From Candidatus Omnitrophota bacterium (GTDB taxonomy: Bacteria > Ratteibacteria > UBA8468 > MWAK01), in contig JAZDPL010000085.1 in NCBI GenBank assembly GCA_043797665.1, forward strand, positions 1 to 17,258: a DNA stretch of 17,258 bases, in the 5' to 3' direction. A model generated the notes under the pieces. The model was given only the letters and a program-made list of their open reading frames with translations. It had not been told where the DNA came from and did not search any database. Below are positions 1 through 17,258 of the stretch, one piece after another. Both the position numbers and the translations under genes were made by a program. Position 1 is the first letter of the stretch, and each line of letters opens with the position of its first letter.

Positions 1-388
1 CCGCCAGGATTCCGGCGACCTTGTCCGAATTATCTATCTCCTTTGCTTGGGAGACTTTGACATACTTCTTCAGGTGGTCGGTGACACCGTCCAGGACAGG
101 ACCCATCAGGACCTTAACGCCTTGCCTGGGGACGTCTGCGAACTTGGCGGTGCAGTTGGGCGCTCCCCAGATGGCTTCCGAGAGGTCTTTGCCTACTTTT
201 CTTTCGTCAACGTCAAAAGCAACTACCGGGATTATGTCGCTGACCTTGTAACCTCCGAGATCAGGATGCATAAGTCCCGGGATTACCTCGCCTTTCTTGA
301 TTTTTAGGTCTCTGTAGTAATACCTGCCCTGGACCAAAGAATTGGTGCAGTTACCTACGCCGATTACCGCGATTCTAATTTGGGACAT
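1..388 (-). CDS. ino1: myo-inositol-1-phosphate synthase, N-terminal part (runs off window edge)
   Basis: Not in the ORF track. Manual translation from ATG at 388 gives MSQIRIAVIGVGNCTNSLVQGRYYY...PGLMHPDLGGYKVSDIIPVVAFDVDERKVGKDLSEAIWGAPNCT, the typical bacterial/archaeal MIPS N-terminus (GVGNCxSSLVQG; AFDVDxxKVGxDLSEAI). Frame is open to the window edge. Confidence 0.92.
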   Translation of the reverse strand, partial: MSQIRIAVIGVGNCTNSLVQGRYYYRDLKIKKGEVIPGLMHPDLGGYKVSDIIPVVAFDVDERKVGKDLSEAIWGAPNCTAKFADVPRQGVKVLMGPVLDGVTDHLKKYVKVSQAKEIDNSDKVAGILA

Positions 389-391
389 TTT

Positions 392-1567: not shown

Positions 1568-1601
1568 AAATCTTCTCCTTTCTTGTAATGTTTTTATATT
1601 C

Positions 1602-1625
1602 GGGTCGGATAAATCCGACCCCTAC
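1602..1625 (-). repeat. GTAG-tagged REP-like palindrome
   Basis: Minus strand reads GTAG-GGGTCGGAT-TT-ATCCGACCC (perfect 9-bp stem), 2 nt after the regulator stop codon. Confidence 0.75.
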
Positions 1626-1627
1626 AA

Positions 1628-2776: not shown

Positions 2777-2785
2777 TTTATACCT

Positions 2786-2814
2786 ATTCTACCTCAAAAA
2801 AGATGTTTTGTCAA
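2786..2814 (-). promoter_or_regulatory. sigma70-type promoter of the GntR/LacI regulator
   Basis: Minus strand: TTGACA (2814-2809), 17 nt, TAGAAT (2791-2786); AT-rich upstream tract. Confidence 0.75.
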
Positions 2815-2945
2815 GTATTATTTATAATTTATATATAATTTTATTATACTTTATTCAGTATTAATTCCCGTAATGATTTGAATATTTTCAGAGAAGAACC
2901 ACCTGGTTAAATTAAACGGACTCTACGGACCTCTGGTCTGAAAGA

Positions 2946-3557
2946 CTATTCTTCTATCGCCAATAGCCGGCAGGGCAACTGAACCACACCGGGAATTTTG
3001 AGAGGCACCACACAAATCTTTACTTCTTCCTTTGATATCTTATCTAAGTTTACCGGGATACAGACACAAGAGATTCCAGCCTTAAAGAGTTCTACAAAGA
3101 TACCCCTGGGGTCAGCATGGTTCTCGTATACGTCAGAGATGAACAGGTCTATCTCCTGAGAAATTATCCACCCGACCGCGTCCTTTCCGTAAAAATATAC
3201 CTCCGGAGAATCAATAGACCTCGGATTCCAGCCGGTATCAATAATAAGCCCCTTTCCTTTAACCGAAATACCGGTTGCCTTCAGTTCCTCCGCCCTTATC
3301 TCCCTTCCCAAACCCTCCCGCTTCAGACGAATTACCGTAGTCGGCACCATAAAGAGTTTTTCCAGCGGATAATTACCCGCATCCAGGCGGTTGTCAAATT
3401 CCAGGATATGGCCCGGCAGGTCCAGATAGGTCCCGGACATGGAGGACAGCACAAGATTATGGATAATCCCCTGATAGAGGCTGTCTTTCATCCTTATCGG
3501 CACCAGCGTCCGCGAAACCCCTCCGGTAATTTCAGTAGTCAAATCGATAATTTTCAT
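2946..3557 (-). CDS. cyclase (kynurenine formamidase-like) family protein with degenerate metal motif
   Basis: MKIIDLT start, MSGTYLDLPGH where HxGTHxDxPxH is expected, LIIDTGW, C-terminal PLKIPG...PCRLLA; GAGGTG SD. Confidence 0.75.
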   Translation of the reverse strand: MKIIDLTTEITGGVSRTLVPIRMKDSLYQGIIHNLVLSSMSGTYLDLPGHILEFDNRLDAGNYPLEKLFMVPTTVIRLKREGLGREIRAEELKATGISVKGKGLIIDTGWNPRSIDSPEVYFYGKDAVGWIISQEIDLFISDVYENHADPRGIFVELFKAGISCVCIPVNLDKISKEEVKICVVPLKIPGVVQLPCRLLAIEE

Positions 3558-3579
3558 TTCACCTCGTACTTAAAAAAAT

Positions 3580-3610
3580 AGATTCCGGCTTATTACATGC
3601 CGGAATGACA
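3580..3610. repeat. TGTC/CGTC-tagged REP-like hairpin
   Basis: AGATTCCGGC-N9-GCCGGAATGACA; shares the AGATT...AATGACA frame with the other copies. Confidence 0.6.
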
Positions 3611-3636
3611 TCTATGTTGTTTGAGAATACCTAATC

Positions 3637-5175
3637 CTACATTGTATCCAAAAGGTGCCAGAAGGCAGAGGCTGACCTCTTGAAACTTTCTCTTCCCGCT
3701 CCCAAACAAGGTTTAAAAGAAAAAAAGCCGCCAAAACTCCGGCACCGCAAGATGGAAATCAGTTCCTTTATCTCCGCATTACCGTAGCCCGGCAACTGAT
3801 ATGAACCGGAAAAGAGACCGTCGTTAATGTACAAAAGACCGCTAAGTTTCCTTACCCGGGAGGGAATACCCAGAAAAGGTTTTTCGCCATTCCGGGCAAA
3901 GTTTGCCGGATTGAACGCCAGACGCAAATAAGGAGAATTTACGCTCCGGATAACATCTTCACACCGGGCTGAACCCGAACAATAGGTACCCGGCTCATTC
4001 TCAATCAGAAGAGCAACCTTTCGCTCCTGAGCCAACGCTGCCATTTCCCCTAACTTTTCCAAAACCTCTTTCCGGAAATTTCCGGCATTACCTTCCGGCA
4101 GATAGAATGAAGAAATGATAAGATATTTGACCCCAAAAATCTCTGCCAGGTCCAACGATTTCTTACACCGGTCCATGTTGGCAATTAAGTCTCCCTTTAA
4201 AGATATCCGGTTAATACCGGTATCTAAAGAAGAAACCGAAAAACCTTTATCTGCCAACCTCTTCTTTAATTCTTGAGTCTGACTGCCGGAAAGGTCTAAT
4301 AACTCTTTGCCCTCTACTTTACGCAACTCCACGTGGCTGATACCTTCTCCCTGCAGGACGGTCATAATCTCGTCGGTTTCCGAGCCGACTTCGTCGCTGA
4401 CCGCGGTCAAAATAAAAGATTCTTCCTTCAGCCGGGCAGACTTTATCTTGCCCCTCTGCATCACGCAATCCGTACAGTTAGGGTTGTCGCAGAGAAAAAC
4501 CTCCGGTTTCTTCCTTAAAGCCTCCAAGCCAACCTGCACCATCTTTTTAGCCTTCATCAAACGGACCACCGCATTGCCAATCTTACCGGTTTTCATTACG
4601 CCGGTCTCACGGAAGAGCCGGTCCATACCGATAAAATTCCGGTGCGGACCAGGAAACCTCTTGAGTACTTTGGTCTTCTCCTGCCCCTTCTCATCCCGGC
4701 ACTTAACCTCCTTCTCGGAAAGGTACGGTACATCAGCATAGTCTTCAATGGTATGCAAGGTAGTACTTCTATCCTGGTCAACACCTAAAAGCAGGATATA
4801 GCCTCCCCAATCTATTAGTTTGGCAAAGGGCGTACCTTTTCCGCAGGCGGTTTCCGCTTTGATGTGGTCAACAACCAATCTCCCTGCTCTCTTCCCCCAG
4901 GCTGAAACCGAATGAGTTGGGTGGCCACTCTTCACCACATCAGGGCGCATACTGAACATCCTGGTAACCTCTGCCCCACCTAAAGGGTACGTCATCACCA
5001 CCGTCCCTTCTTTACCCACTGTTTCCAGGATGGCATCAATAACCTTTTCCGCACCGCCTTCAACCTCACCCAAACTACTCAAAGCGCTGTGCACCATTAC
5101 GATATTACCCTTCTTCAAGCCTAACGCCTTCAACCTTTTCTTTATCTCTTCTTTGGTAACCATTCTTGGACCCAT
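3637..5175 (-). CDS. AAC(3)/Antibiotic_NAT family N-acetyltransferase fused to xylose-isomerase/AP_endonuc_2-like TIM barrel
   Basis: AAC(3) motifs MVHSALSSLG, HPTHSVSAWG, ILLLGV..STTLHTIE and Cys-rich CDNPNCTDC; second domain AVSDE...VELR...IENE...FNPAN...PGYG. Start moved from 5274 to ATG 5175 (GGTGAG SD; 5163 also possible) because the ORF extension translates a REP (CHSERSEES). Confidence 0.85.
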   Translation of the reverse strand: MGPRMVTKEEIKKRLKALGLKKGNIVMVHSALSSLGEVEGGAEKVIDAILETVGKEGTVVMTYPLGGAEVTRMFSMRPDVVKSGHPTHSVSAWGKRAGRLVVDHIKAETACGKGTPFAKLIDWGGYILLLGVDQDRSTTLHTIEDYADVPYLSEKEVKCRDEKGQEKTKVLKRFPGPHRNFIGMDRLFRETGVMKTGKIGNAVVRLMKAKKMVQVGLEALRKKPEVFLCDNPNCTDCVMQRGKIKSARLKEESFILTAVSDEVGSETDEIMTVLQGEGISHVELRKVEGKELLDLSGSQTQELKKRLADKGFSVSSLDTGINRISLKGDLIANMDRCKKSLDLAEIFGVKYLIISSFYLPEGNAGNFRKEVLEKLGEMAALAQERKVALLIENEPGTYCSGSARCEDVIRSVNSPYLRLAFNPANFARNGEKPFLGIPSRVRKLSGLLYINDGLFSGSYQLPGYGNAEIKELISILRCRSFGGFFSFKPCLGAGRESFKRSASAFWHLLDTM

Positions 5176-5187
5176 TAATTTCTCACC

Positions 5188-5214
5188 AGATTCTTCACTG
5201 CGTTCAGAATGACA
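5188..5214. repeat. TGTC/CGTC-tagged REP-like single unit
   Basis: AGATTCTTCACTGCGTTCAGAATGACA, homologous to the units at 7442-7499, 14617 and 16982. Confidence 0.8.
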
Positions 5215-5310
5215 ATGATTAGAGTATTTATAAAAGGGGAGAGGCTGATTTCTTGAGACATACTCAAAAACCAACGGGGCAATAAATTCGTAATGCTTGT
5301 TTCTTTTAAC

Positions 5311-6636
5311 TTACCGGCCGGAACGGCTGGCTGCCTTTTTGGCCGCGTTTCTGATTCCAGTAATTATGGCGTCTAAGTCGCCCCTGGTCAGCCTGGGGTG
5401 CATCGGCAGGTTCATCTCCCGGCGGTAGAAAAACTTGTCCGCATTGGGACAGCGTTCCTTACCGCAGCCTAATTTTTTGAGCGCGGTAAAGTCATAGGTC
5501 GGCTGGTAGTGCAGAATTCCCTGAATCCCTTCCTCCTTATAGAGAACCCGCATAAAATCATCCCGGCTCGCACCTAATTCTTCCTCTTCCACACAGAGGG
5601 TGTATAAATGATAGACGTGGTAGCAGTTAGGGTCTTCATAGACCGGCGTAATCCCTTTCAGTCCTTTCAGCCCTTCGTTCAGGTACCGGCCGTTTTCCCG
5701 CCTCTTTTCGCTAAGCATGGTTAATTTTTTTAACTGAGCCCGGCCACAGGCAGCCTGGGGTTCATTCATCCGGTAATTGTTGCCAAAATGACCGTTGGTG
5801 TCCTCAACGTCAAAGTGGGAAGGGAGCCAGTAGTCAGTAACTCCTTCCTTGACCAGGGTGGTATCTCCAAAGGTAAACCTGGTCTGCCCTGCCGGCCAGT
5901 GGCCGATAGACATACAGCGCATTTTACTGATGGCATCAACCAGGTCATCGCGGCTGGTCGTAATCATGCCGCCCTCGCCCAAAGTAGTCATATTCTTTAA
6001 GGAATGGAAACTGAAACAACCGACGTCACCGATGGAACCGGCTTTTCTGCCTTTGTATTCCGCGCCGGGCGCGTGGGCGCAGTCTTCCAGAACATAGAGG
6101 TTGTGCCTCCGGGCAATTTCCATAATCGGGTCCATATCGCACATCTGACCGCCGTAGTGGACCACGTAAATCGCTTTGGTACGCGGGGTAACCTTCTCCT
6201 CAATTTTCGCCGGGTCGATATTGAAGGTACGCGGGTCAATATCAGCGTAAACCGGCCGGCCTTTTTCTTTTAATATCACCAGGGAAGTGGCGATAAAGGT
6301 ATTCGGCGTAACAATCACTTCGTCGCCTTCCCTGATATTAAATACCTGGGTCGCCACGTGCATTGCGGTGGTGCAGTTACTGACCGCAAAAGCATGCTTA
6401 ACACCGTGGACGTCGGCAAACTCTTTCTGGAAGAGTTGCACCTGCGGCCCCATGGTAAGGGAATCCTGTTTCATCGCCTTCAGCACCATCTTCTCTTCTT
6501 CTCCATCGTAAATGGAGCCGAAGAAAGAATACGGAACCTTCAGCGGCACCCCGTCATTCATCTGATAGCCGGAGGTAATACCGCCTTCCGTATCACTGCC
6601 GGTATACAAATCCTTCTTCTCTTCATTCTTTTCCAT
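5311..6636 (-). CDS. DegT/DnrJ/EryC1/StrS family PLP-dependent aminotransferase
   Basis: SNCTTAMH, EDCAHAPG, FSFHSLKNMTTLGEGG (PLP lysine), GNNYRM, HVYHLY, LPMHP; GGAGG SD. Confidence 0.95.
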   Translation of the reverse strand: MEKNEEKKDLYTGSDTEGGITSGYQMNDGVPLKVPYSFFGSIYDGEEEKMVLKAMKQDSLTMGPQVQLFQKEFADVHGVKHAFAVSNCTTAMHVATQVFNIREGDEVIVTPNTFIATSLVILKEKGRPVYADIDPRTFNIDPAKIEEKVTPRTKAIYVVHYGGQMCDMDPIMEIARRHNLYVLEDCAHAPGAEYKGRKAGSIGDVGCFSFHSLKNMTTLGEGGMITTSRDDLVDAISKMRCMSIGHWPAGQTRFTFGDTTLVKEGVTDYWLPSHFDVEDTNGHFGNNYRMNEPQAACGRAQLKKLTMLSEKRRENGRYLNEGLKGLKGITPVYEDPNCYHVYHLYTLCVEEEELGASRDDFMRVLYKEEGIQGILHYQPTYDFTALKKLGCGKERCPNADKFFYRREMNLPMHPRLTRGDLDAIITGIRNAAKKAASRSGR

Positions 6637-7420
6637 CGTTCACCTCCATCAGACGTTGGATGAGACGGACCAGTTCACCCACCGCTTCTTCGCAGATCTT
6701 CCGGCCTAATTCGGCGCTGGCTCGTTCCGGATAGCCCATTACACCGACTTTTATTTTGGGATGCTGGGAGATGTAAGGAAAAACCGCTTCATCGTCAACC
6801 GGCTTCTCCTTCACCTGATAGGCATCCTGGTCCCGGCGCATCATCGCCAAAATCTCCGGTTCATCCAGAACCACCGGTTCTTTAACCAACTCCGGATGCC
6901 AGTAGAGCATCAGGGAAGTCTCCATATAGCCGGCGTGAAAGTCTTTTTCCGCAAACGCCTTCTTAAAATTTTCGGATAATTTCCAGAAAAGGAATAACGC
7001 CACCGTTACACTCTTATCCGGCAATCTCTTCCTTAAGAAAAAATCTATCCCGTCTTTAATCGCCTGTTCGTTTTCGGTTCCGCCGTGACCCGGCACGATG
7101 ATAATCTTCTTAAATCCCTGCTGACTTAAAGAAGTCAGGATTTCGCCAATCATCAGAGAGACTACCGGCGGACTGATATTAATCGTTCCCGGAAGGGTGC
7201 CACCGGAAAAGACATAGTTGAGAACCGGTGCAACTACGGCACCACTCTCGGCCGAGGCGCGATGGGAAATCTCAACCGCATTATGGATATCGGTGGAAAG
7301 CGGCAGGTGAAATCCGTGCTGTTCGCAAATACCGACCGGAAGCAGTATTACCCTTCCGTCTTTGATAGCCTGACCGGCCTCTTTTACCGTCATTTCTTCC
7401 ATCAGTGTTGGTTTCTTCAC
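6623..7420 (-). CDS. creatininase/creatinine amidohydrolase family protein
   Basis: LPVGICEQHGFHLPLSTD, GHGG.EN, DFHAGYMETS, GVMGYP..ASAELG. Start reassigned to GTG 7420 (GGAGG SD 6 nt upstream); the longer ORF begins inside a REP. Overlaps the aminotransferase start by 14 nt. Confidence 0.9.
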   Translation of the reverse strand: MKKPTLMEEMTVKEAGQAIKDGRVILLPVGICEQHGFHLPLSTDIHNAVEISHRASAESGAVVAPVLNYVFSGGTLPGTINISPPVVSLMIGEILTSLSQQGFKKIIIVPGHGGTENEQAIKDGIDFFLRKRLPDKSVTVALFLFWKLSENFKKAFAEKDFHAGYMETSLMLYWHPELVKEPVVLDEPEILAMMRRDQDAYQVKEKPVDDEAVFPYISQHPKIKVGVMGYPERASAELGRKICEEAVGELVRLIQRLMEVNDGKE

Positions 7421-7441
7421 TATAAACCTCCGTCTTATGTT

Positions 7442-7499
7442 TGTCATTCTGAGCAAAGCGAAGAATCTGAGATCCTTCGGCTGGCGCCTCAGGATGACA
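7442..7499. repeat. inverted doublet of TGTC-tagged REP-like units (REPIN-like)
   Basis: TGTCATTCTGAGCAAAGCGAAGAATCT-G-AGATCCTTCGGCTGGCGCCTCAGGATGACA; the two halves are imperfect reverse complements. Confidence 0.85.
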
Positions 7500-7516
7500 T
7501 AAGTGCCCTATCCCAT

Positions 7517-8809
7517 TCAAGGGATAGAGAACCCGTATTTTGAGCGGTCAACCACTACTTTGCCGGAAGAAACCGTATAGACTACCCGGCCAGCCATCTT
7601 TTGATTCAAAAAAGGCGTGTTCTGACTTAAGGATTTGATGTTATCCGTGGTCAGCGTCCATTCGGCTTTGGGGTCAAAGACGGTGACATCAGCCCGCAAA
7701 CCTTTCTTAAGGGTGCCCCGGTCAGAAAGACCAAATACCCGGGCCGGTCTGACCGTAAGGCAGGCAATCAGTTGATTCAAGGGAATCTCTTTTGTTAGTC
7801 TCAATAAAAGGGGCAAGGCGGTCTCAAACCCCAGCATCCCGAAAGCCGCGCTGTCAAAGTCGGTCTCCTTCTCTTCCCGGCTGTGGGGTGCGTGGTCGGT
7901 CACAATGATATCCACCGTACCATCCCTGACCGCCACTTTTAGCGCTCTGACATCTTCTTCCGTACGTAAAGGAGGGCTGACCTTGGCGCTGGTGTTATAT
8001 CCTTTTACCGCCTCTTCGGTTAAGGTTAAGTGGTGGAAAGTAACCTCGGCGGTTACTGGAAAGCCTGACCTTTTTGCCTGCCGAAGAAGGGATATGGAAC
8101 CCGCGGTAGTAAGATGGGCAAGATGAAGATGTCCCCGGGTTAAGGAAGCCACCGCAATATCCCGGAAGACCGCCACCTCTTCGGCTTCCTTCGGAATAGC
8201 GGTTAACCCTAAGAGTGTGGCGAGTTTACCTTCATTTATTACCCCTTCCCGGGCCAGAGCCGAATCTTCCGGATGGTCAATGACCGGTCGGTTTACCATT
8301 CTGGCGTATTCCAGCGCCCGGCGTAAGACCTGGCTGTCCGCAACACATCTACCGTCATCGGAAAACGCCGCCGCACCGTTTTTTGCCAGGTCAACCATTT
8401 CCGTAAGTTCTTTGCCCTGCCGGTTTCTGGTAATCGCACCGATGGGAAGTACTGAAATGGGTGTTTCTTTACCCTTATTGAGTACAAAAGCCACCAGGAA
8501 ACCGTTATCAATACAGGGATTGGTGTTAGGCATCGCCAGGATTGTGGTGTATCCGCCGCTGGCGGCCGAATCTGCACCGCTCTTAATCGTCTCCTCATCC
8601 TCCCGGCCTGGTTCCCGTAAATGACAATGTCCATCAATAAACCCGGGCGAAACAATCAGTCCTCCGGCATCAATCACCCGAATCCCTTTATCCGGAGTAA
8701 TATTCTTGCCAAGTCTTACCACCTTATCACCGGCACAAAGAAGGTCTAAAACTCCATCAATTTTCTGCCCCGGGTCGATTACCCGACCACCCTTGATCAA
8801 TAGATTCAT
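7517..8809 (-). CDS. pyrC: dihydroorotase (type I)
   Basis: PGFIDGHCHLREPG, AMPNT, FSDDG, EVTFHHL, KVSPPLR, TDHAPH, SxSxNTPF. Confidence 0.96.
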   Translation of the reverse strand: MNLLIKGGRVIDPGQKIDGVLDLLCAGDKVVRLGKNITPDKGIRVIDAGGLIVSPGFIDGHCHLREPGREDEETIKSGADSAASGGYTTILAMPNTNPCIDNGFLVAFVLNKGKETPISVLPIGAITRNRQGKELTEMVDLAKNGAAAFSDDGRCVADSQVLRRALEYARMVNRPVIDHPEDSALAREGVINEGKLATLLGLTAIPKEAEEVAVFRDIAVASLTRGHLHLAHLTTAGSISLLRQAKRSGFPVTAEVTFHHLTLTEEAVKGYNTSAKVSPPLRTEEDVRALKVAVRDGTVDIIVTDHAPHSREEKETDFDSAAFGMLGFETALPLLLRLTKEIPLNQLIACLTVRPARVFGLSDRGTLKKGLRADVTVFDPKAEWTLTTDNIKSLSQNTPFLNQKMAGRVVYTVSSGKVVVDRSKYGFSIP

Positions 8810-8817
8810 CGCTTAAT

Positions 8818-8826
8818 ATTATACCA
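8818..8826 (-). promoter_or_regulatory. extended -10 promoter immediately upstream of pyrC
   Basis: Minus strand TGG-TATAAT, 8 nt before the ATG; no SD in between. Confidence 0.6.
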
Positions 8827-8855
8827 CCAGTACATAATAGAAATAAACCAACCAG

Positions 8856-10226
8856 TCATTGCGCGGAAAGAACTGATTTAATGATATCTATGGAACGCCG
8901 GGTCGCACCGGTATGCTGACGGACAGCCTGACAACCTTTCTGCCCGACATCTTCAGCCCATTCCGGCTCGGAAAGACACCGGTCAAAGAAACGATAAAGT
9001 CCCTCGGGGTTGTTCACTAAAACCGCGCCGCCCGCCCGGATTAAAAGGTCTCCCTCCTCCCGGAAGTTCCAGGCATGGGGACCAAAGGTAACCGGTTTCC
9101 CAAAAGCCGCCGGCTCCAAGACATTATGTCCGCCATCACCAAAAATGGTAAGACTTCCGCCCACAAAGGCAGACTTACAAGAGGCATACGCCTTGTTTAG
9201 ACATCCCATTACATCAAAGATTAAATACGGGGTATCGTCTTCCTGAACCTTTTCTTTACTCAAAAGTTTGGAAAGAACCTGAAATTTCAAGCCTCGCTGA
9301 GGCAGGATTGAAAATAGATTACTCCGTTCTAAATGGCGCGGCCCAAAAACAATCTTCAAATCCGGATGCCGGACTAATAGTCTTTCGGAAATATCTATCG
9401 CCATTTCCTCCTCTTCCGGATGAATGGAACCGAAAACAATTCCTAATCCCCCTTCTTCCCCCTTTTGCAAAGGGGGATTGAAGGGGATATTATTTACCCC
9501 TGCCTCTTCCTTCAATATCCGCTGGGCTACTGAAACTACCAAATCATACTTCAGGTTACCGGTCGCAGACACCCTCTCCGGCGGTGCCCCCAATTCTTTT
9601 ATCCACTCTGCTTCTTCCCGGCTGCGCATGCCAAAAGCCTGGAATTGAACCAGAATCGGCGCCAGAATTTTTTGGATTCTTCGGTATCTGCGGTAGGCAC
9701 GCGGAGAGAGACAGCCGTTAATCAAAACCGCGGGAATCTTTTTAAGGCTTAAATTAAATAAGAGATTGGGCCAGAGTTCTGTTTCCAAACTAATAAAAAG
9801 GCAGGGTCTGAACCGTCGGATAAAAAAGAAACCCGCCAGAGGCAGGTCGAGCGGGAAATAGGCCACCGGTACATCCGGAAACAACCGCCGGGCGGTTCGG
9901 AACCCGGTCGGGGTAGTGGTAGTAAGAAATACAGGACGCTTCAGTTCTTTTTCAAGCGCCTCAACCAGAAGGGTACTGATGTTTACTTCGCCTACGGAAA
10001 GCGCTTGAACCCAGATACTGCCGGAAACAGGCTTACCGGATGCGGGAAACCCCAGTCCTAAACGACTGAGCACCCCATTAAAACCGCCTCCACGGCGGAA
10101 ATGACGGTTCAAAGTAACCAGAATAAAATAGGGAAGGGTTAAGTGGAAAAGAAGGTTATATAGGAAATACGCCTGCAGTTTACGAGTATGATAAAACGAT
10201 TGTGATATTCTATCGTCCTTCAACAT
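8856..10226 (-). CDS. waaA: 3-deoxy-D-manno-octulosonic acid (Kdo) transferase
   Basis: IWVQALSVGE, TTTTPTG, YFPLD, ETELWPN, TGNLKYD, PRHLER, FVGGSL...GGHNVLEPA. Exact start uncertain (overlaps upstream gene by 17 nt). Confidence 0.93.
   Translation of the reverse strand: MLKDDRISQSFYHTRKLQAYFLYNLLFHLTLPYFILVTLNRHFRRGGGFNGVLSRLGLGFPASGKPVSGSIWVQALSVGEVNISTLLVEALEKELKRPVFLTTTTPTGFRTARRLFPDVPVAYFPLDLPLAGFFFIRRFRPCLFISLETELWPNLLFNLSLKKIPAVLINGCLSPRAYRRYRRIQKILAPILVQFQAFGMRSREEAEWIKELGAPPERVSATGNLKYDLVVSVAQRILKEEAGVNNIPFNPPLQKGEEGGLGIVFGSIHPEEEEMAIDISERLLVRHPDLKIVFGPRHLERSNLFSILPQRGLKFQVLSKLLSKEKVQEDDTPYLIFDVMGCLNKAYASCKSAFVGGSLTIFGDGGHNVLEPAAFGKPVTFGPHAWNFREEGDLLIRAGGAVLVNNPEGLYRFFDRCLSEPEWAEDVGQKGCQAVRQHTGATRRSIDIIKSVLSAQ
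9445..9491. repeat. palindromic element within waaA coding sequence
   Basis: CCCCTTC-T-TCCCCCTTT-TGC-AAAGGGGGA-TT-GAAGGGG nested stem, translated as NIPFNPPLQKGEEGGL. Confidence 0.7.
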
Positions 10227-10950
10227 TAAGTGTTTTTGTTTTCTTTTTTAAGGTTCTCAGGGTAAAATACGTTATTAACCCAACGATGAACAATAAACTC
10301 CAGCCTGAATCTAACTTTATTTCCCCTTCTCCAAGCAGGTCTGCCATAAAATCAAGAAAAGGGAAAGTTGTAGTTATTACAAAGAAAGCAGTGTATTCCC
10401 TCTTCAGAACATTTTTGAATGAAAACGGCAAACCAGGTTTTTGCCAATTTTTGAATCGCGGCAGAAAAGCCGGTGTCCTTTCGGCCCAGGCCAAAAATAA
10501 TGACCCAAACTTTTCTTCCAGAAATTTTTCTTCGGCAAAAATTATCCGCTCGTAATATAACCAGAATGCTAAAAGAGTTATTAAACCAAACCACCATACC
10601 TGAATAAATAATGTTATCCCTAAAAAAATTGCGAAATTCCCCAGATAAAGAGGGTGCCGAACCAGGGAATACATTCCGGTGGTATTAAGCACTTCTGCTA
10701 TCTGTCCTTTTGTGTTTCTGCCCGATGTCCCTTTGGGGACATACCCTATGGTAAAACAACGTATAGCCAGACCGGAAAAAGATACCAATAAACAGGGAAT
10801 CTCCCATAATGACTCCCACCCAAAAGTCCTCTCCAAATATTCAGAGTGTTTTAAAGCAATGAACATAATTGGAAGAATTAAAAAAGGCAGGTAACTTCGC
10901 CGTTCAAAAAGCCACCTGCCTTGCTTTTCTAATTCTTCACGAATGGTCAT
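10210..10950 (-). CDS. lmtA: ICMT/PEMT-family membrane methyltransferase, LmtA-like lipid A phosphate methyltransferase
   Basis: GMYSLVRHPLYLGN and EEKFL..FG ICMT-family motifs; QGxWLFxxRSYLP, TSGRNT, KREY and terminal VEGR match my recollection of Leptospira LmtA; adjacent to waaA. Confidence 0.8.
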   Translation of the reverse strand: MTIREELEKQGRWLFERRSYLPFLILPIMFIALKHSEYLERTFGWESLWEIPCLLVSFSGLAIRCFTIGYVPKGTSGRNTKGQIAEVLNTTGMYSLVRHPLYLGNFAIFLGITLFIQVWWFGLITLLAFWLYYERIIFAEEKFLEEKFGSLFLAWAERTPAFLPRFKNWQKPGLPFSFKNVLKREYTAFFVITTTFPFLDFMADLLGEGEIKLDSGWSLLFIVGLITYFTLRTLKKKTKTLNVEGR

Positions 10951-10954
10951 TTAT

Positions 10955-11716
10955 TCACTCCAGACGAACCGGGATACCCCGGCCGGACAAAAACTCTTTT
11001 ACCTGCTTAATAGTATACTCGCCGTAATGAAAGATGCTTGCCGCTAAAACCGCATCAGCCCGACCTTCGTTTAAAACTTCATAGAGATGTTCTAATTTGC
11101 CCGCCCCACCGGAGGCGATAACCGGCACCGTAACCGCCTCCGATACCTTCCGGGTAAGAAGAACGTCATAGCCGGACTTCGTCCCGTCTTTATCCATACT
11201 GGTAAGGAGAATTTCACCCGCGCCCAGGGTTACCACTTTCTTCGCCCAGTCAACCGCAGAGAGTCCGGTGGGCTTCCGGCCGCCGTAAGTGTAGACCTCC
11301 CATTCCTCCGGTCCGGACATCTTGGCATCAATCGCCACCACCATACACTGATTACCGAACTTCTCCGCGCCGGTAGCAATTAAATCCGGATTTTCCACCG
11401 CACTGGTATTCAGGGAAACCTTATCTGCACCGGCCCGCAGGATATCCTTGATATCAATAATATTCCTGATACCGCCACCCACGGTCAGAGGAATAAAGAC
11501 CGAACCGGCTGTCTTCTCCACTACCTCCAGAAGAGTACCCCGTCTCTCAAAGGAAGCGGTAATATCAAGAAAAACCAGTTCGTCTGCTCCTTCCTGACTG
11601 TAAGTGGCGCCGGCCTCAACCGGGTCACCGGCATCCCTGAGGTTCTGAAAGTGTACTCCCTTAACGACCCGGCCGTCTTTCACGTCTAGACAGGGAATAA
11701 TCCGCTTGGTCAACAT
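10955..11716 (-). CDS. hisF: imidazole glycerol phosphate synthase cyclase subunit
   Basis: [66 protein letters not shown]. Confidence 0.99.
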
Positions 11717-11778
11717 AGGCCCCCTTATCTCTTTATTGTGCCAAAATGCCCCATAATTGTCAAATCGTCGTCGTCACT

Positions 11779-11809
11779 CCCCACCATCCTGTCGCAATCA
11801 GTTTTGACT
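11779..11809 (+). repeat. motif B copy 1
   Basis: CCCCACCATCCTGTCGCAATCAGTTTTGACT. Confidence 0.85.
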
Positions 11810-11896
11810 TACCCTAAACTTTGGGTAATTCGATACGGGGGAGTTGTACGTCTTCAGCCAGCGGTGGACAAACTGGGCCTTTTCTTATGTGTTGAA

Positions 11897-11995
11897 GGAG
11901 AGTTGAACAAGGTTCGAACCGGAATCAGGCTTAAAATACCCCCCTTTTCTTGTTATCCCCCCTACTCCACCCTCCAGTCGTAATTAACTTTGACT
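11897..11995 (+). repeat. short A-B unit (motif A 11897-11920, motif B 11960-11995); direct repeat of 16776-16872
   Basis: GGAGAGTTGAACAAGGTTCGAACCGGAATCAGGCTTAAAATACCCC...TGTTATCCCCCCTACTCCACCCTCCAGTCGTAATTA aligns end to end with 16776-16872. Confidence 0.9.
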
Positions 11996-12018
11996 TGACT
12001 TTAGCAAGGTGATAACAT
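11990..12018 (+). promoter_or_regulatory. sigma70-type promoter, -35 lying in motif B
   Basis: TTGACT (11990-11995), 17 nt, TGn-TAACAT (-10 at 12013-12018), upstream of the 12080 gene. Confidence 0.6.
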
Positions 12019-12079
12019 TTAGAGAGGCCAATTACAAACCCAGTGTGTATATTAAATATCAACAAGGAGGGTATACAAG

Positions 12080-13258
12080 ATGCCTACTCGACAAAACAGA
12101 TTAAGGTGGCTAGGAAGGTATGACAGCGGTATAGTACAGAAAACCAAGTTGGATATTATTTTATTTCTTTTTTGTTCCATCATTTTTGCAGTTTTTTCTT
12201 CTGGTGGGTCTGAAGAACAGCCGACGGATACAATCATCACCGTCATTGTTGATAAAAGAGGTGGAAGAGTAGATTGGTCACATACCAATAATATAATAAC
12301 TCACTGTAGGTATGGCTATGACGGATATTATGATTTATGGACAATGAATCCGGACGGTTCTGGGGCGAAATGTCTGACAGGTAATAAACCGGGCATTCCT
12401 CAATTACATAATGGACAACCAACATGGCATTCCAGTGGTAAATATATTGTCTTTCAATCTCAAGACCCGGCCTTACCCCATACCAAAGAAATAGATTATG
12501 CTTACACCGAAGCAGGACATGGCTTACACAATAATCTCTGGATTACCAATCCCGAAGGCGACAAATTTTATCAACTGACAAAAATTAAAATAGGCGGAGC
12601 GATACTGCATCCCTGTTTTTCTCGCGATGGCAAAAGGCTTTTATGGTCGGAAAAGGTTGGTAAGAATTCATTAGATTGGGCAATTAAAATTGCTGATTTT
12701 ATTGAAACTCCCACGCCCCATCTAGGAAATATAAAATCATATCAACCAGCGGGAAAAACATGGTACGAAGCACACGAGTTTTCTGTAGATGGCTCAAAAA
12801 TTCTATGTACTATCGGGTCGGGTACCGAGGCTTATTACAATTATGACATTTGGGAAATGGATATGGCAACGCAAAAATTAATCCAATTGACTAATACGCA
12901 GGATGAGTGGGACGAACATGCCCATTATTCACCTGACGGGAAAAAGATTTCTTGGATAAGTAGCAAAGGATATCCGTATAACCCTTCCAAGTGGGGACTA
13001 ACTCTCAAAACGGACTTGTGGATAATGGACGCCGATGGTTCCAACAAAGAAAGAATTACATATTTTAACGAGCCGGGTTATCAAGAATATACCGGCAAAC
13101 AAATGGTTATGTCCGACAATAGCTGGGGCCCGGATGGGAAAAAAATAGTGGCAATCATAATGGCTCCAAAAATGGGCCGGAAATCTGCCCAGATAGTTAT
13201 AATAGATTTGAAAAAGGCGCTGCTTCGGTCCAAAAAGAAGGTGGTATCCTATAATTGA
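12080..13258 (+). CDS. exported TolB-like/PD40-repeat beta-propeller protein
   Basis: AGGAGG SD; hydrophobic N-terminal segment; repeated P.WS.DG-type blades (PTWHSSGK, PCFSRDGK, FSVDGS, AHYSPDGKK, SWGPDGKK) and LW.M..DGS motifs. Confidence 0.85.
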   Translation: MPTRQNRLRWLGRYDSGIVQKTKLDIILFLFCSIIFAVFSSGGSEEQPTDTIITVIVDKRGGRVDWSHTNNIITHCRYGYDGYYDLWTMNPDGSGAKCLTGNKPGIPQLHNGQPTWHSSGKYIVFQSQDPALPHTKEIDYAYTEAGHGLHNNLWITNPEGDKFYQLTKIKIGGAILHPCFSRDGKRLLWSEKVGKNSLDWAIKIADFIETPTPHLGNIKSYQPAGKTWYEAHEFSVDGSKILCTIGSGTEAYYNYDIWEMDMATQKLIQLTNTQDEWDEHAHYSPDGKKISWISSKGYPYNPSKWGLTLKTDLWIMDADGSNKERITYFNEPGYQEYTGKQMVMSDNSWGPDGKKIVAIIMAPKMGRKSAQIVIIDLKKALLRSKKKVVSYN

Positions 13259-13344
13259 CTTTGGCAGGCTTGGGAAATTCCGAATAATCAATCCTTTTGT
13301 TTCTATTAGTCCAGAACTATATTGTAATATTTAAAAATTCGCCA

Positions 13345-13499
13345 CTGGGACGAGTGGACGACTTCCGAACTTTTAAGTGGCTTGAAACCATCCCCTACCC
13401 TCAACAGATGCTATTGAAAATCAAGGACTTTCTGCAATTTTCACCTGATTTCTCAACTTCCTTCCCTAAGAATCCCTACTCCACCATCCAGTTACAATT
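13345..13499 (+). repeat. long A-B unit (motif A 13345-13370, motif B 13474-13499); direct repeat of 14661-14828
   Basis: Shares e.g. AACAGAT(G/A)CTATTGAAAATCAAGGACTT and TGCAATTTTCACC with the 14661 copy. Confidence 0.92.
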
Positions 13500-13528
13500 C
13501 AGGATTTATGCTGAGTGTGTAGTGGGTG

Positions 13529-13557
13529 TTGACATAATTAAACTTTTATATTATTAT
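13529..13557 (+). promoter_or_regulatory. promoter of toxin-antitoxin operon
   Basis: TTGACA (13529-13534), 17 nt, TATTAT (13552-13557), then AGGAGG SD. Confidence 0.75.
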
Positions 13558-13577
13558 ATCAAACAGGAGGAAGGAAT

Positions 13578-13802
13578 ATGGTTACTACAACCGTAAGATT
13601 ACCGGAAGAAAAACTAAAATTGACTAAAGCGATTGCTGGATATGAAGGCAGGTCTTTGAGCAAAGTCTTTGAAGAGCTGGTGGATGAATATATCATCATG
13701 CATCGGGAAACGATGGAACTTCTCAATATTCCGGGGTTTGAAATGGAGTGTCTCCAGGGACTGGAGGAAATAAGGAAAGGCAAAGGCAAGAGGCTTGGAT
13801 GA
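13578..13802 (+). CDS. type II antitoxin (RHH-like N-terminus)
   Basis: TTTVRLPE...AGYEGRSLSKVFEELVDEYI; acidic C-terminal half with ETMELL; ATGA overlap with the toxin. Confidence 0.8.
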   Translation: MVTTTVRLPEEKLKLTKAIAGYEGRSLSKVFEELVDEYIIMHRETMELLNIPGFEMECLQGLEEIRKGKGKRLG

Positions 13803-14068
13803 AATGGGAAGTTCAATTATCCTCTAAGGCAGAAAAATATTACCACCGGTTACCCGAGAAAATAAGAAAAAAAGTTCTTACTGAACTTTTCAAGTTAAGT
13901 ATACTGGATATAGTCCTTTCTCATCCGGATGTAAAACCATTGATTGGAAAGCTGAAGGGGTTTTATCGCCTAAGGGTTGGGAAATACCGCGTTATCTTCG
14001 GTCTCTTAAAAAATGAGGGCATTATCGCGGTGGTAAACATCCATCCGAGAGGCGATGTCTATAAATAA
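13799..14068 (+). CDS. RelE/ParE family toxin
   Basis: MKWEVQLSSKAEKYYHRL...VKPLIGKLKGFYRLRVGKYRVIF...IHPRGDVYK; start placed at ATG 13799, coupled to the antitoxin stop. Confidence 0.9.
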   Translation: MKWEVQLSSKAEKYYHRLPEKIRKKVLTELFKLSILDIVLSHPDVKPLIGKLKGFYRLRVGKYRVIFGLLKNEGIIAVVNIHPRGDVYK

Positions 14069-14070
14069 AA

Positions 14071-14298
14071 ATGGAAGAGATGGACGGGTTCGAACTGGGG
14101 AGGGTGAAAACCATCCAAGATTTTCGGCAGTTTTACAAAAATATCATCATTAAGATAAAAGGAAGCCACATTACCATCAAAATGCCAACCGGACAATTAA
14201 TAACCATTCCGGTAACAAAAGAGTTGAAGATTGGACTGTTAAAAGACGCATTACGAAAGGCAGGACTTACTGAAACTCAATTTTCGGAACTTTCATGA
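14071..14298 (+). pseudogene. chimeric/5'-truncated HicA-family toxin remnant
   Basis: C-terminal IKGSHITIK...ITIP...ELKIGLLKDALRKAGLT fits HicA; the first ~22 codons derive from motif A and its tail; no hicB seen. Confidence 0.65.
14072..14135 (+). repeat. motif A copy with internally deleted long tail
   Basis: TGGAAGAGATGGACGGGTTCGAACTGG then ATCCAAGATTTTCGGCAGTTT (IQDFRQF, compare IKDFLQF in the long units). Confidence 0.7.
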
Positions 14299-14571
14299 GG
14301 ACATGGCATCAAACACCCTTACCTTGATTAGACAAAGGTTCTCTTTATTGATGACCTCATAGATTTCGTTCAAGTTTTGCTGATTTGGTTCTTGTTTGTT
14401 GTCAGTCAAGTAAAAGGTGTTTAATCCATGAAAAATAATATTTGCCCTACTATTTATAGTTTCGGGATTAAACTGCGATACGAAAAGTAGACTATATTTC
14501 ACACTTAAATTGCTTATTATTGTTCTTCTTATCTGGATTATACTCTGCGTATTCCGGTCCATGGGAGCCAC
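14293..14571 (-). CDS. hypothetical protein or gene fragment
   Basis: 92-codon ORF in AT-rich DNA, AGGTGAG-like SD near the start; no recognisable motif. Confidence 0.3.
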   Translation of the reverse strand: MAPMDRNTQSIIQIRRTIISNLSVKYSLLFVSQFNPETINSRANIIFHGLNTFYLTDNKQEPNQQNLNEIYEVINKENLCLIKVRVFDAMSS

Positions 14572-14603
14572 TCACCTGTAGTAAACGTCGGTACACTACA
14601 GAA

Positions 14604-14664
14604 TTCGCAATGACTGAGATTCTTCGGCTTCGCCTCAGAATGACAGAAGGAAATTTTTAGCTGG
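14604..14664 (+). repeat. REP-like unit plus flanks; direct repeat of 16969-17030
   Basis: TTCGCAATGACTG(A/G)GATTCTTCGGCTTCGCCTCAGAATGACA...AATTTTTAGCTGG at both sites. Confidence 0.9.
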
Positions 14665-14828
14665 GAGAGGTGGATGTATTTCGAACCTTTCAATGGTTAG
14701 AAACTATTCCTTACCCTTAACAGATACTATTGAAAATCAAGGACTTCTTGCAATTTTCACCCGATCTCTTAACTTCCACCCCTCCCTATGAATCCCCTAC
14801 CCCACCATCCCGTCGCAAATAGTTTTGA
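14661..14828 (+). repeat. long A-B unit (motif A 14661-14687, motif B 14795-14828)
   Basis: Colinear with 13345-13499. Confidence 0.92.
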
Positions 14829-14853
14829 TTAGTATCTTAAAATGTGGTATGCT
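14825..14853 (+). promoter_or_regulatory. sigma70-type promoter, -35 lying in motif B
   Basis: TTGATT (14825-14830), 17 nt, TGn-TATGCT (-10 at 14848-14853), upstream of the pilin-like gene. Confidence 0.6.
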
Positions 14854-14899
14854 TTAATATGATTGGGTTCTATCTGTCTTTTAAGAGTACAATACTCAC

Positions 14900-15487
14900 G
14901 TGCAAAATGCGGTGATTAAAAAAAAGAAACGTAACTTCACCCTAATCGAACTTCTGGTTAGTATAGCTATTATCACCCTGTTAGCAGCGATGATTCTAAG
15001 CGCAATCTCCCGAACAAGAGAAAAAACCCAAAGTATTGTCTGCCTTAATAATCTCAGGCAGTTAGGATTGGCAATTCAAATGTACACTCAGGATAACTAC
15101 GAGAACTTACCCAGTGAAATTGGTTGGATAGATGAAGTGAGTAAGTATGTATATGAGAAAGAAGAAATCTATTCCTGCCCATCAGAAAAGAACAAAAGAG
15201 GTGCTACCGACTACGGATATAATGCCAAGGCAGCCAATAGAAAGTTGTCGGGCAGCAACCACGTTGGCATTTTTCCCCTTATCTTTGACCGTAACCCAGG
15301 GGCAGATCCGGTCCTGGCCGCTGACCCTGACCCGGGCAGTCCTAACTATTATGCTAATTTTTACTATGACTTCTGCTCCAACCGGCATTATGGCGGTACA
15401 AATTTCCTCTTTTTAGATGGTCACGCTACCTGGATTAAAGCTCCGATGAGTGCAGAAATTAACATCCTAAATTTTAATCCTGAGTGA
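14900..15487 (+). CDS. prepilin-type N-terminal cleavage/methylation protein with DUF1559-like region and H-X9-DG motif
   Basis: KKKKRN-FTLIELLVSIAII, CLNNLRQLGLA, CPS, RHYGGTNFLFLDGHA. Confidence 0.9.
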   Translation: MQNAVIKKKKRNFTLIELLVSIAIITLLAAMILSAISRTREKTQSIVCLNNLRQLGLAIQMYTQDNYENLPSEIGWIDEVSKYVYEKEEIYSCPSEKNKRGATDYGYNAKAANRKLSGSNHVGIFPLIFDRNPGADPVLAADPDPGSPNYYANFYYDFCSNRHYGGTNFLFLDGHATWIKAPMSAEINILNFNPE

Positions 15488-15494
15488 TAACCTG

Positions 15495-16481
15495 TTACTT
15501 TGCGTCTTTGACACAGCGGAACCCTAATTTTGTCGCCGCAGTTGTTCCCTTAAACCGTACAAAGGTAGAGAGTTCAGCCGAACCATCTTCAAATGATCCT
15601 CCTTTAACTACCTTCCAACGCTTATTACCGGCGCTGTAAGGAGTGGCGGTCCACTCCCGGACATTACCTGCCATGTCAAAAACACCAAAAGAACTGCAGT
15701 CAAATGGAAAACTGCCCACCGGCATTGTTGTCCCTCTGCTTGCTGGATCGCCCTGACTGTTGGCCATTGTGGGTTTATAATCATTTCCCCATGGATAGGT
15801 AAGACCTTCATTCCCCCGAGCCGCCCATTCCCACTCTTCTTCGGTCGGCAACCTTTTTCCCCGCCAGTTTGCATAGCTTTCGGCATCTTCACATGTAACA
15901 TTGACCACCGGATGGTCGGCAAACTCTGCTGGATAACCACCGTCGTGCCAGATATCATATTTTGCACCCCTGGGATCGGCCGGTGCTTTGTAACCGGTCG
16001 CCTTAACAAAATCATAATACTGGCGGTTGGTAACTTCGTATTTATAAATATAGAAAGCCGTCATCTGGTTCTTTACAGGTTTTCCGTTCTCATCCCAACC
16101 CATAACGTATTCACCCCCGGGAATCAAAACCATGCTTTCTGAAGGCACTGAAACTGACGTTGTTCCTGTTGGCACTGAACTACCACCGCCTCCGGTACTC
16201 GGTACGGAATATTCCACAGTCGCTTGGGATTGAGGTTGGAGACCAACAACCCCCTTTTTCATTTCAGTAGGACTGGCAGTAGTATGCTCTTTTATTACCG
16301 TACTTATCTTGCGGTATATTTTGAATCCAAGCAAACTCAAACCAGCAATTACACCAAGAGTGACCAAAATTCGGAAAAGAATTCGGATCTTTTGAGGAAT
16401 GGGGTTCTTTGGAGGAGATGATTTGATTAATTTAATTATCTCGGCCGCATCTTTTTGTTCAATAAGAATCTTCGGTGACAT
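15495..16481 (-). CDS. membrane-anchored FGE-sulfatase (SUMF1/EgtB-like) domain protein
   Basis: N-terminal TM helix, Ser/Thr/Gly linker, EVTN.QY, HPVVNVT..DA, RLPTEEEWEWAARG, DMAGNVREWT, KGGSF, GFRC. Confidence 0.9.
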   Translation of the reverse strand: MSPKILIEQKDAAEIIKLIKSSPPKNPIPQKIRILFRILVTLGVIAGLSLLGFKIYRKISTVIKEHTTASPTEMKKGVVGLQPQSQATVEYSVPSTGGGGSSVPTGTTSVSVPSESMVLIPGGEYVMGWDENGKPVKNQMTAFYIYKYEVTNRQYYDFVKATGYKAPADPRGAKYDIWHDGGYPAEFADHPVVNVTCEDAESYANWRGKRLPTEEEWEWAARGNEGLTYPWGNDYKPTMANSQGDPASRGTTMPVGSFPFDCSSFGVFDMAGNVREWTATPYSAGNKRWKVVKGGSFEDGSAELSTFVRFKGTTAATKLGFRCVKDAK

Positions 16482-16662
16482 ATTAGTATAATCACCTTAA
16501 AAAATTGGGCTCAATCAGTGTAATATGTTAGCAATTCTAAAAATTACTACCTTATAATTTATCCTATTTCTCAGAATAAGTCAATTATTTGGTTTACTGA
16601 CTTTGCCAAGACTTTTCTGTAAAATTGGGTAATTATTATCAGAAAGGAAAAATGGGGCACCG

Positions 16663-16746
16663 CTGGGAGGATTGGACACTATCCGAACCGCCTTTCATAG
16701 ACTGGATAAGTACGTTTATATCCCCAAGATGAGCCTGCCAGCTTAG
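16663..16746 (+). repeat. motif A copy opening a different orphan coding tail
   Basis: CTGGGAGGATTGGACACTATCCGAACC...; reads LGGLDTIRTAFHRLDKYVYIPKMSLPA*. Confidence 0.7.
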
Positions 16747-16775
16747 GTTTCCGCTGTTTTTTCGGTCAGGTAAGA

Positions 16776-16872
16776 GGGAGAGGTGGACGGGTTCAAACTG
16801 GTATCAGACTTAAAAATACCCCCTTGTCTCCTGTTATCCCCCCTACCCCACCATCCAGTTACAATTAGTTTG
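16776..16872 (+). repeat. short A-B unit (motif A 16776-16800, motif B 16841-16872)
   Basis: Colinear with 11897-11995. Confidence 0.9.
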
Positions 16873-16968
16873 GTTTTAGGAAGTCATACACTATGGCGAA
16901 AGAAGTCTGTATGGGGTCGTCCGTCAAGGCAGTTGCCAAACGCCTTCTTACACTGAAGTTCCGGTAGG

Positions 16969-17030
16969 TTCGCAATGACTGGGATTCTTCGGCTTCGCCT
17001 CAGAATGACAAAGGGGTAATTTTTAGCTGG
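16969..17030 (+). repeat. REP-like unit plus flanks, second copy
   Basis: Near-identical to 14604-14664. Confidence 0.9.
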
Positions 17031-17084
17031 TAAGGTTGCCAAACTCTTTGTCTATTAACGACTCCTGACTATTACATATCCAAG

Positions 17085-17116
17085 TACCCCACCGTCCAAT
17101 CGCAATTAGTTCTTGA
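17085..17116 (+). repeat. motif B copy 6
   Basis: TACCCCACCGTCCAATCGCAATTAGTTCTTGA. Confidence 0.8.
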
Positions 17117-17232
17117 TCCTGAAATTCCGACATAAGAAGTTTTTTAGGGTTAAAGCCTGTGCTGCACACGCCGGCGTGGGACACAAGTCAATTCCGCCGG
17201 ACGGGGGAGGATTAAAACAGGAGGTGGCTACC

Positions 17233-17258
17233 ATGACCGGAACGGGTGGCTACTTTAC
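17233..17258 (+). CDS. probable start of a gene running off the window
   Basis: AGGAGG (17219-17224) 8 nt before ATG; MTGTGGYF... Confidence 0.45.

Follow-up and report, generated by a model that had tools for sequence, protein, structure and literature searches.

The DNA analysed here (the window) is the whole of contig C90 of the source genome, G000, a Candidatus Omnitrophota assembly that is 86% complete and comprises 93 contigs. The window is 17,258 nt long, and its metabolic genes (positions 1-11716, the last of them hisF) are followed by an array of accessory genes set among two recurring motifs, A and B. We find that motif A joins the reversed 3′ end of a tRNA-Gln(CTG) gene to the severed tail of a gene for a large serine recombinase (LSR), in other words an attachment scar, and that flanking DNA is reassorted inside motif B. 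On the explanation that we favor, to which we give an even chance, the array sits at tRNA-Gln(CTG), A is the LSR scar, and B is a second junction that is likely cut by a recombinase acting in trans. The window holds the end of this array that lies farthest from the tRNA gene. (Here C-numbers denote contigs and L-numbers fetched loci; G001, a congener of G000, is the main comparison genome, and G003, G005 and G006 are further relatives.)

Motif A and the tail of a serine recombinase gene

The genome encodes two large serine recombinases, on C75 and C37. The intact LSR of C75 ends ...IRTTWLGEVDSNHH / ...IRTTWLGEVDSNHHTQIQSLKSYR, and the last part of this sequence is reversed tRNA-Gln(CTG), read through. 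In the window, stretches of motif A match the 3′ end of tRNA-Gln(CTG) over 16, 13 of 14, 12 and 8 nt, and A together with the next 80-130 nt translates as LGRVDDFRTFKWLETIPYP..., LGEVDVFRTFQW... and LGGLDTIRTAFHRLDKYVYIP.... The overlap of a recombinase 3′ end with its attachment site is thus seen both in the C75 gene, which reads through tRNA-Gln, and in the scars, which encode LSR-type tails. The A stretches of the window are as follows.

11894..11961, + strand: degenerate A-like spacer of upstream family U1, the same family as the copies at 16776, on C44, on C61 and in G001
13345..13475, + strand: A scar, a 14-nt tRNA-Gln core plus LSR tail LGRVDDFRTFKWLETIPYP...; the core is 13/14 identical to the C44 tRNA-Gln
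14071..14298, + strand: degenerate A that runs into what is left of a HicA gene (PF07927, only profile positions 16-58)
14660..14796, + strand: A scar plus LSR tail LGEVDVFRTFQWLETIPYP...; 16 nt agree exactly with the 3′ end of the C75 tRNA-Gln, reversed
16662..16746, + strand: A scar, an 8-nt tRNA-Gln core plus LSR tail LGGLDTIRTAFHRLDKYVYIPKMSLPA-stop, matched by a hidden Markov model (HMM) made from database LSR tails alone
16776..16842, + strand: second A-like stretch, family U1; 12 nt identical to the tRNA core
17025..17083, + strand: 6-nt A trace passing into upstream family U6

An earlier sequence-only reading of the window had listed six A sites and two weak traces. The sites at 13345, 14660, 16662 and 16776 are clear, those at 11897 and 14072 are degenerate, and only a 6-nt core is left at 17025; the trace at 11838 found no support. 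Note that the bare A profile is weak, with 316 genome matches above 12 bits as against 173-199 in two shuffles, so A is convincing only together with its coding tail.

Most of the best 120 LSR homologues end in reversed tRNA sequence or at a conserved Trp. Sixteen of these 120, picked by pattern, have tails that are not tRNA sequence, among them FRTFDW..YP and VRT..Q..EYIYIPDL; P0105 (NDFRTFDWAEEYKYP) and P0119 (VRTVIQQQNEYIYIPDL) are examples. An HMM built from those 16 homologues alone (threshold at least 6 bits) matched upstream of 9 of 88 B sites and gave no match in reverse-strand, downstream or shuffled controls; eight of nine of its genome matches lie in the arrays of C61 (which ends at tRNA-Asn), C44 and C90. 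The tail at 14660 is missed by this model, and we call it because it is 82% identical to the tail at 13345 and has short matches to the tails of LSR homologues.

A recombinase linked to the motifs had been proposed as a check on the sequence-only reading, and the outcome is divided: the C75 LSR explains A, but no enzyme could be linked to B. No relatives of the LSR were found in viral contigs. We asked whether a scar at C15:243 could be the other end of the C75 element, but gave this up since G001 carries this scar next to tRNA-Leu. The frame of the second LSR (G000:C37:3070-5088) continues into what we take to be a comM-type gene. There are two tRNA-Gln(CTG) genes in G000, at C44:7518-7589 and C75:24599-24672.

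Anchors of the array and turnover of its cargo

In five family relatives hisF adjoins a murJ-like gene with no array between them. In G000 the counterpart of the murJ-like gene is on C44, beside tRNA-Gln, and a 12-bp duplication made by an insertion sequence (IS) joins C90 to C44; because the IS has other copies, this link rests on the duplication together with gene order. From hisF to tRNA-Gln (C44:7518) and murJ, the G000 array measures approximately 22.4 kb without the IS. The array of G001 is approximately 9.7 kb long, runs through C20-L105-C28 (bridged by L105) and has the same tRNA-Gln/murJ end, so that in both genomes the array ends at an intact target gene. (The murJ-side tRNA-Gln(CTG) occurs in G000 and G001 and is absent between hisF and murJ in the five family relatives.)

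Between these shared anchors the cargo has turned over, with breakpoints at the motifs, as the sequence-only reading had led one to expect. The two arrays have only one RelBE module in common (597 bp, 97% identical). It runs from a B to an A, and the flank upstream of this B and the tail of this A differ between the two genomes. The same reading had also put forward a hotspot of tandem accretion whose recombinase is encoded elsewhere than in the window, and the LSR tails, the anchors and the cargo turnover relative to G001 support this. No LSR body is left next to the array's tRNA-Gln in either G000 or G001, as expected, since the accretion model, as set out in the available part of a review (PMC5704250), has recombinase-less units.

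Several modules are 94-98% identical between G000 and G001, and core DNA of the two is 86-93% identical. A second carAB in the array (L041:7625-12358; G000:C44) is 97.7% identical to G001 as against approximately 90% for core DNA, and because of this difference it is likely to have been transferred recently between species, judging by sequence identity.

Could the array be an artifact of mis-assembly around repeats? In favor of this, contig ends lie no more than 3 kb from 12 of 21 B clusters, as against 4.8 at random. However, the repeat copies have diverged (60-96%), G001 has the same architecture, metagenome contigs repeat the G001 junctions at 99.6-100%, and the IS duplication agrees across contigs; we therefore consider mis-assembly highly improbable.

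The remaining features of the array and its borders are as follows.

10955..11716, - strand: hisF, the left chromosomal anchor of the array (Pfam His_biosynth); colinear with G001 up to 11771
12080..13258, + strand: TolB-like beta-propeller protein (PF07676)
13578..14068, + strand: ribbon-helix-helix (RHH) antitoxin plus ParE/RelE toxin, by domain search; a 79% copy occurs in G003 in a different context
14604..14658, strand not assigned: REP-like (repetitive extragenic palindromic) hairpin repeat directly before the A at 14660; family D5, copies 89% identical
14900..15487, + strand: prepilin-type DUF1559 protein, by domain search
15495..16481, - strand: FGE-sulfatase-domain protein on the opposite strand, by domain search
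17107..17118, strand not assigned: 12-bp target-site duplication; the second copy is on C44 beside the other IS end
17119..17258, strand not assigned: IS end, which breaks the contig; the IS copy at C44:81-2505 has DUF6788 and a DDE transposase

The cargo identities proposed from the sequence were upheld (PD40 propeller, RHH plus ParE, HicA without its N-terminus, prepilin/DUF1559 and FGE-sulfatase), as was the placement of cargo between B and the next A; the "next gene" that had been expected after the last B turned out to be the IS end. The propeller gene had no DNA match in the five relatives searched, and the FGE-sulfatase-domain gene did not match the template of the genome's diversity-generating retroelement (DGR). 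That DGR, at G000:C50:7512-10036, looks complete (reverse transcriptase, template repeat and variable repeat), and its variable repeat is 86% identical to the template and differs at template adenines; more distant FGE-type repeats occur on C36, C56, C5 and C47. A DarTG toxin-antitoxin pair lies behind a B box at L043:754-2484 (G000:C40), and pairs of DUF5678 and aspartyl-protease-like genes are repeated cargo in several arrays.

A second copy of the REP-like hairpin, at 16969-17023, directly precedes the 6-nt A trace, and pieces related to it (D8, I1) occur in the housekeeping part at 5187-5223 and 7433-7503. A 264-bp element at G000:C69:6160-6423 has the terminal inverted repeats of the IS that breaks the window and is likely a miniature inverted-repeat transposable element (MITE) of that IS.

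Motif B and the reassortment of its flanks

Motif B is a 27-nt box with the consensus (C/T)TACCCCACCATCCAGTCGCAATTAGT, its profile having been refined on the genome. A genome scan gave 52 sites above 18 bits and none in three genome shuffles. All six places at which the sequence-only reading had put B were recovered by the profile, at 31-41 bits, and none was found in the first 11.7 kb.

11776..11802, + strand: B box 1, 34 bits; begins 4 nt past the end of G001 homology and is absent here in G001
11962..11988, + strand: B box 2, followed by the promoter-like TTGACT-17-TAACAT (11990-12018)
13476..13502, + strand: B box 3, followed by TTGACA-17-TATTAT (13529-13557)
14797..14823, + strand: B box 4, 38 bits
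16843..16869, + strand: B box 5, 41 bits
17084..17110, + strand: B box 6, which opens the RelBE module that continues on C44

The motif is not confined to the array; 53 sites score above 16 bits, and they are spread over 19 of the 93 contigs. Neighboring boxes within 15 kb of each other are co-oriented in 31 of 32 pairs genome-wide, and a tRNA lies no more than 6 kb from 8 of 21 B clusters (3.8 at random, p 0.02). Away from tRNA arrays, boxes directly follow hycI, uvrA and gyrB, for example; they also stand ahead of the host's tRNA-Val, tRNA-Gly and tRNA-Thr genes and pyruvate kinase. On C52, B occurs with 5′ halves of a tRNA; these precede a tyrosine recombinase gene that overlaps the start of a tRNA, and B is therefore not specific to LSR islands. 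(A promoter plus 5′ halves of a CAT-anticodon tRNA are found at C52:36772, 51891 and 79041-80497, upstream of this 467-aa recombinase, the end of which overlaps the 5′ end of the full tRNA; accretion here is on the 5′ side of the tRNA.)

One pattern found B in five of nine family genomes (33, 15, 3, 2 and 1 copies) and in 0 of 32 genomes beyond the family; one exact pattern had no match in viral contigs. With a looser pattern 12 of 56 genomes beyond the family had one to four matches, which is near the reversed control, and four single matches in other phyla look like chance. Rfam found only tRNA on the array and seven B-rich loci.

To describe what surrounds the box we used 88 distinct B contexts, 53 of them from G000 and the rest from G001, G003, G005, G006 and metagenome loci (14 of 26 such loci were used, with 12 omitted as duplicates or likely chance matches). 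Among the 3828 pairs of contexts, 58 have the upstream flank alone in common and 105 the downstream flank alone, and 3 agree in both; upstream identity stops at the left edge of B, and downstream identity starts at its right edge. Flanks are thus reassorted inside B. A 469-bp B-to-B module with a reversed zincin gene stands at two loci with 96% identity, one in the tRNA-Asn array of G001 and the other after hycI in L107/L112 (99.9% identical to G001 contigs), and the hycI locus of G000 has a single B in place of this module. A UPF0047 module behaves in the same way. (L112:4140-4430 holds a MITE-like repeat of approximately 280 bp with more than 20 copies in G000.)

Within the box, deviation from the consensus is 6% in two conserved blocks and 22% at four variable spacer positions. 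Across 85 in-register sites, positions 1-4 and 11-15 vary with the upstream flank (p 0.008 and 0.043) and positions 16-24 and 25-27 with the downstream flank (p 0.026 and 0.042), where the p-values are weak, uncorrected for ten tests and drawn from related sites. This switch in linkage suggests a crossover near positions 15-16. Whether such crossovers are directed by a protein we would put at even odds.

Several observations weigh against this explanation, beginning with the modest linkage statistics just given. In the zincin module, the cleanest B-to-B pair, one box shows differences at positions 12-13, 24 and 26 and the other at 11-26, and partial B sites break at about positions 10, 20 and 22; since the differences fall on both sides of position 16 and the partial breaks vary, the data do not fit one fixed crossover. 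Neither a dyad nor a hairpin is clear in the box, no enzyme could be assigned to it, and a recombinase tail is detected upstream of only the 9 sites in 88 mentioned above. Two shared modules (91.9% and 92.4%) fall within the range of core identity. Finally, 59 of 87 boxes are followed by a promoter-like TTGA(C/T)-16-18-TANNNT (consensus match only; mean 0.9 and maximum 4 in shuffles), with the -35 element mostly 4 or 17-18 nt beyond B position 24, and for this reason regulation alone could conserve B.

That last point underlies a different account, in which A is still the LSR scar, B is a regulator-binding box in front of reusable promoters, and the shuffling is done by general homologous or slippage recombination at these almost identical boxes, as in PeSL cassettes. 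The boxes ahead of the tRNA-Val, tRNA-Gly, tRNA-Thr and pyruvate kinase genes, the varying breakpoints and the lack of a match to a dedicated enzyme would all suit it. However, the -35 offset is split between approximately 4 and 17-18 nt, a step of 13-14 nt that is unlike one helical turn. Moreover, if copying went through the longer flank homologies, both flanks would often be expected to stay together, but of 166 flank-sharing pairs only 3 show this, and homologous shuffling leaves the presence of B at new sites unexplained, for example 4 nt from the hisF junction. We regard this account as possible, though we are inclined to doubt it.

The search for an enzyme that might act on B covered several families. 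In G000 no integron integrase exceeded its cut-off (best TIGR02249 score 85, cut-off 265); XerC/D-like genes are present. Two IS110 genes, two Y1 genes and one DGR reverse transcriptase gene of G000 have no B in their flanks. A search for Y2 transposases gave no match, and its positive control gave no signal either. No MOBP relaxase was matched in G000 and no TrwC in the 13 genomes searched. Seventeen regions around tyrosine and serine recombinase genes in relatives had no B next to the recombinase gene, and a search for coupling proteins returned only weak ATPase matches, in tyrosine-recombinase-linked elements without adjacent B. (At L247, L249, L250 and L251 an ATPase of approximately 810 aa lies next to a 363-367-aa tyrosine recombinase, with tRNA-Ser or tRNA-Lys in three of the four loci, and some of these elements also encode a 540-aa serine recombinase. 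At L235, G008:C237, a tyrosine recombinase stands beside what we take to be an IS91-type transposase gene, and B was not found in that genome.)

These searches also bear on the idea that an HUH enzyme of a visiting helper element nicks B or starts transfer there, in oriT-like or rolling-circle fashion, and that transfer then ends at the next B or recombines at the next homology. The co-orientation of 31 of 32 neighboring boxes, the sharp left boundary at B and the presence among the cargo of the second carAB, 97.7% identical to G001, are in its favor. Against it stand the relaxase searches (no MOBP in G000, no TrwC in 13 genomes) and the lack of a conserved hairpin beside B, and the part of B that we take to resemble a nick motif is the most variable part of the box. 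We consider this idea improbable.

Three further candidates for the origin of B were rejected. The genome's tmRNA (transfer-messenger RNA) has a 3′ end that differs from B. Reverse-strand frames were found for six upstream families, as for a coding relic, but in the two most plausible frames the deviations are not concentrated on third positions. As a dif site (Xer/pdif, 11-6-11), B was set beside a canonical-looking candidate at C49:12660, which it does not resemble. Near-identical tmRNA copies (98.7%) lie at contig ends, C66:1-307 and C57:7552-7858, with differing downstream DNA.

A proposed mechanism and the closest known systems

We propose the following for the favored explanation, in which A is the LSR scar and B a second junction. 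An element with attP in the last codons of its LSR gene would integrate at the 3′ end of the tRNA, and the far side would keep tRNA core plus LSR tail, an event that we infer from the anatomy seen at the scars. Cargo would end at A because DNA formerly 3′ of the tRNA now ends there. Later elements would then integrate, carry off or deliver recombinase-less units and excise, as in the published model of accretion and cis-mobilization, and LSR-free units would pile up for this reason. We hold such serial LSR integration with cis-mobilization to be very probable. Modules of promoter plus cargo would in turn be swapped by crossovers inside B, probably near positions 15-16 and by a catalyst that we postulate, in tRNA arrays as well as at boxes that adjoin core genes. 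Modules running from B to A or from B to B would result, and these would move from locus to locus and, it seems, from one species to another.

A bolder version makes B the attachment site of an integron-analogous cassette system, that is, a 27-bp asymmetric site recombined in mid-box by a trans-acting enzyme, with modules that have their own promoters moving among approximately 50 chromosomal sockets and between species and entering on serine- or tyrosine-integrase islands at tRNAs. We put this forward tentatively, as conceivable rather than probable. The integron-analogous capture array of the sequence-only reading does not hold for A, which is the scar of tRNA-targeting LSR elements and belongs to a known kind of tRNA-island growth; it survives only for B. 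We did not find B described in the literature covered (titles and abstract openings).

The A layer bears on how recombinase-less gene stacks form at tRNAs in uncultured bacteria, and here the enzyme family and the target can be named. In the B layer, modules of promoter plus gene take new partners at a box that is found across the genome and is restricted to this lineage. Should an enzyme be dedicated to B, this would be a second solution to integron-style shuffling, with a short new recombination site; if none does, a 27-bp promoter-side repeat would be enough to organize modular exchange of chromosomal genes.

Integrons (IntI/attI/attC) are co-oriented arrays of small mobile modules, often with toxin-antitoxin cargo, and the present array resembles them in both respects. 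This likeness, with toxin-antitoxin pairs and small co-oriented cargo between repeats, is what would favor a true integron or CALIN array (a cluster of attC sites lacking an integrase) with atypical attC. However, in agreement with the sequence-only reading, there are no RYYYAAC...GTTRRRY core pairs in 11.7-17.3 kb; six of seven folded stretches are no more stable than shuffles (the seventh folds better); the best TIGR02249 score is that given above; and A is explained by the LSR. Since the tests for attC and IntI failed, we conclude that the array is not an integron, a true integron being extremely unlikely. It differs, too, in that there are neither attC cores nor a hairpin nor IntI, that the modules bring their own promoters, and that several genes face backwards.

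For the A layer, the Dehalococcoides ssrA islands (McMurdie et al. 2011, PMC3146451) are close, since, according to the available part of that paper, they are tandem islands with repeats equal to the 3′ end of the target RNA, they use DsiB, a serine recombinase of approximately 540 aa whose 3′ end overlaps the attachment site, and they include units without an integration module, taken there as cis-mobilizable. The A sites of the present array likewise join the target RNA 3′ end to a displaced recombinase tail. Unlike the ssrA islands, however, the target here is tRNA-Gln(CTG) (tRNA-Asn on C61), units comprise one to few genes, no dsiA/parB/mom module is seen, and a second junction of the B type was not found described in the portion of that paper available to us. 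Similarly, cis-mobilizable elements (CIMEs), as outlined in the accessible part of the review cited above (PMC5704250), have lost the integrase and kept their att sites, with new elements integrating alongside, and the array has recombinase-less units with retained att scars. Unlike those CIMEs, which are described there for integrative and conjugative or mobilizable elements (ICE/IME) with conjugation, no helper or relaxase was found here, and a B-type box is seen here only.

For the B layer, the PeSL cassettes of T4-like phages (Arbiol et al. 2010, PMC2839356), each a promoter plus stem-loop, offer a parallel: per the sections of that report at hand, approximately 50 promoter-linked repeats per genome precede variable genes, and modules are shuffled there. 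B is likewise accompanied by a sigma-70 promoter (59 of 87 boxes, by consensus match only), and modules are shuffled at the repeat. Unlike PeSL, B is chromosomal, forms no stem-loop in itself and is found ahead of several promoter families that are unrelated to each other. Lastly, the tycheposons of Prochlorococcus (bioRxiv 10.1101/2020.12.28.424599) are, as far as the available text of that preprint goes, islands seeded at tRNAs that contain partial tRNAs and pieces of integrase genes, with elements that come and go and cargo that stays behind, and 474 of 501 use tyrosine recombinases; unlike in tycheposons as described there, the scars here are LSR tails and a second box reassorts the modules.

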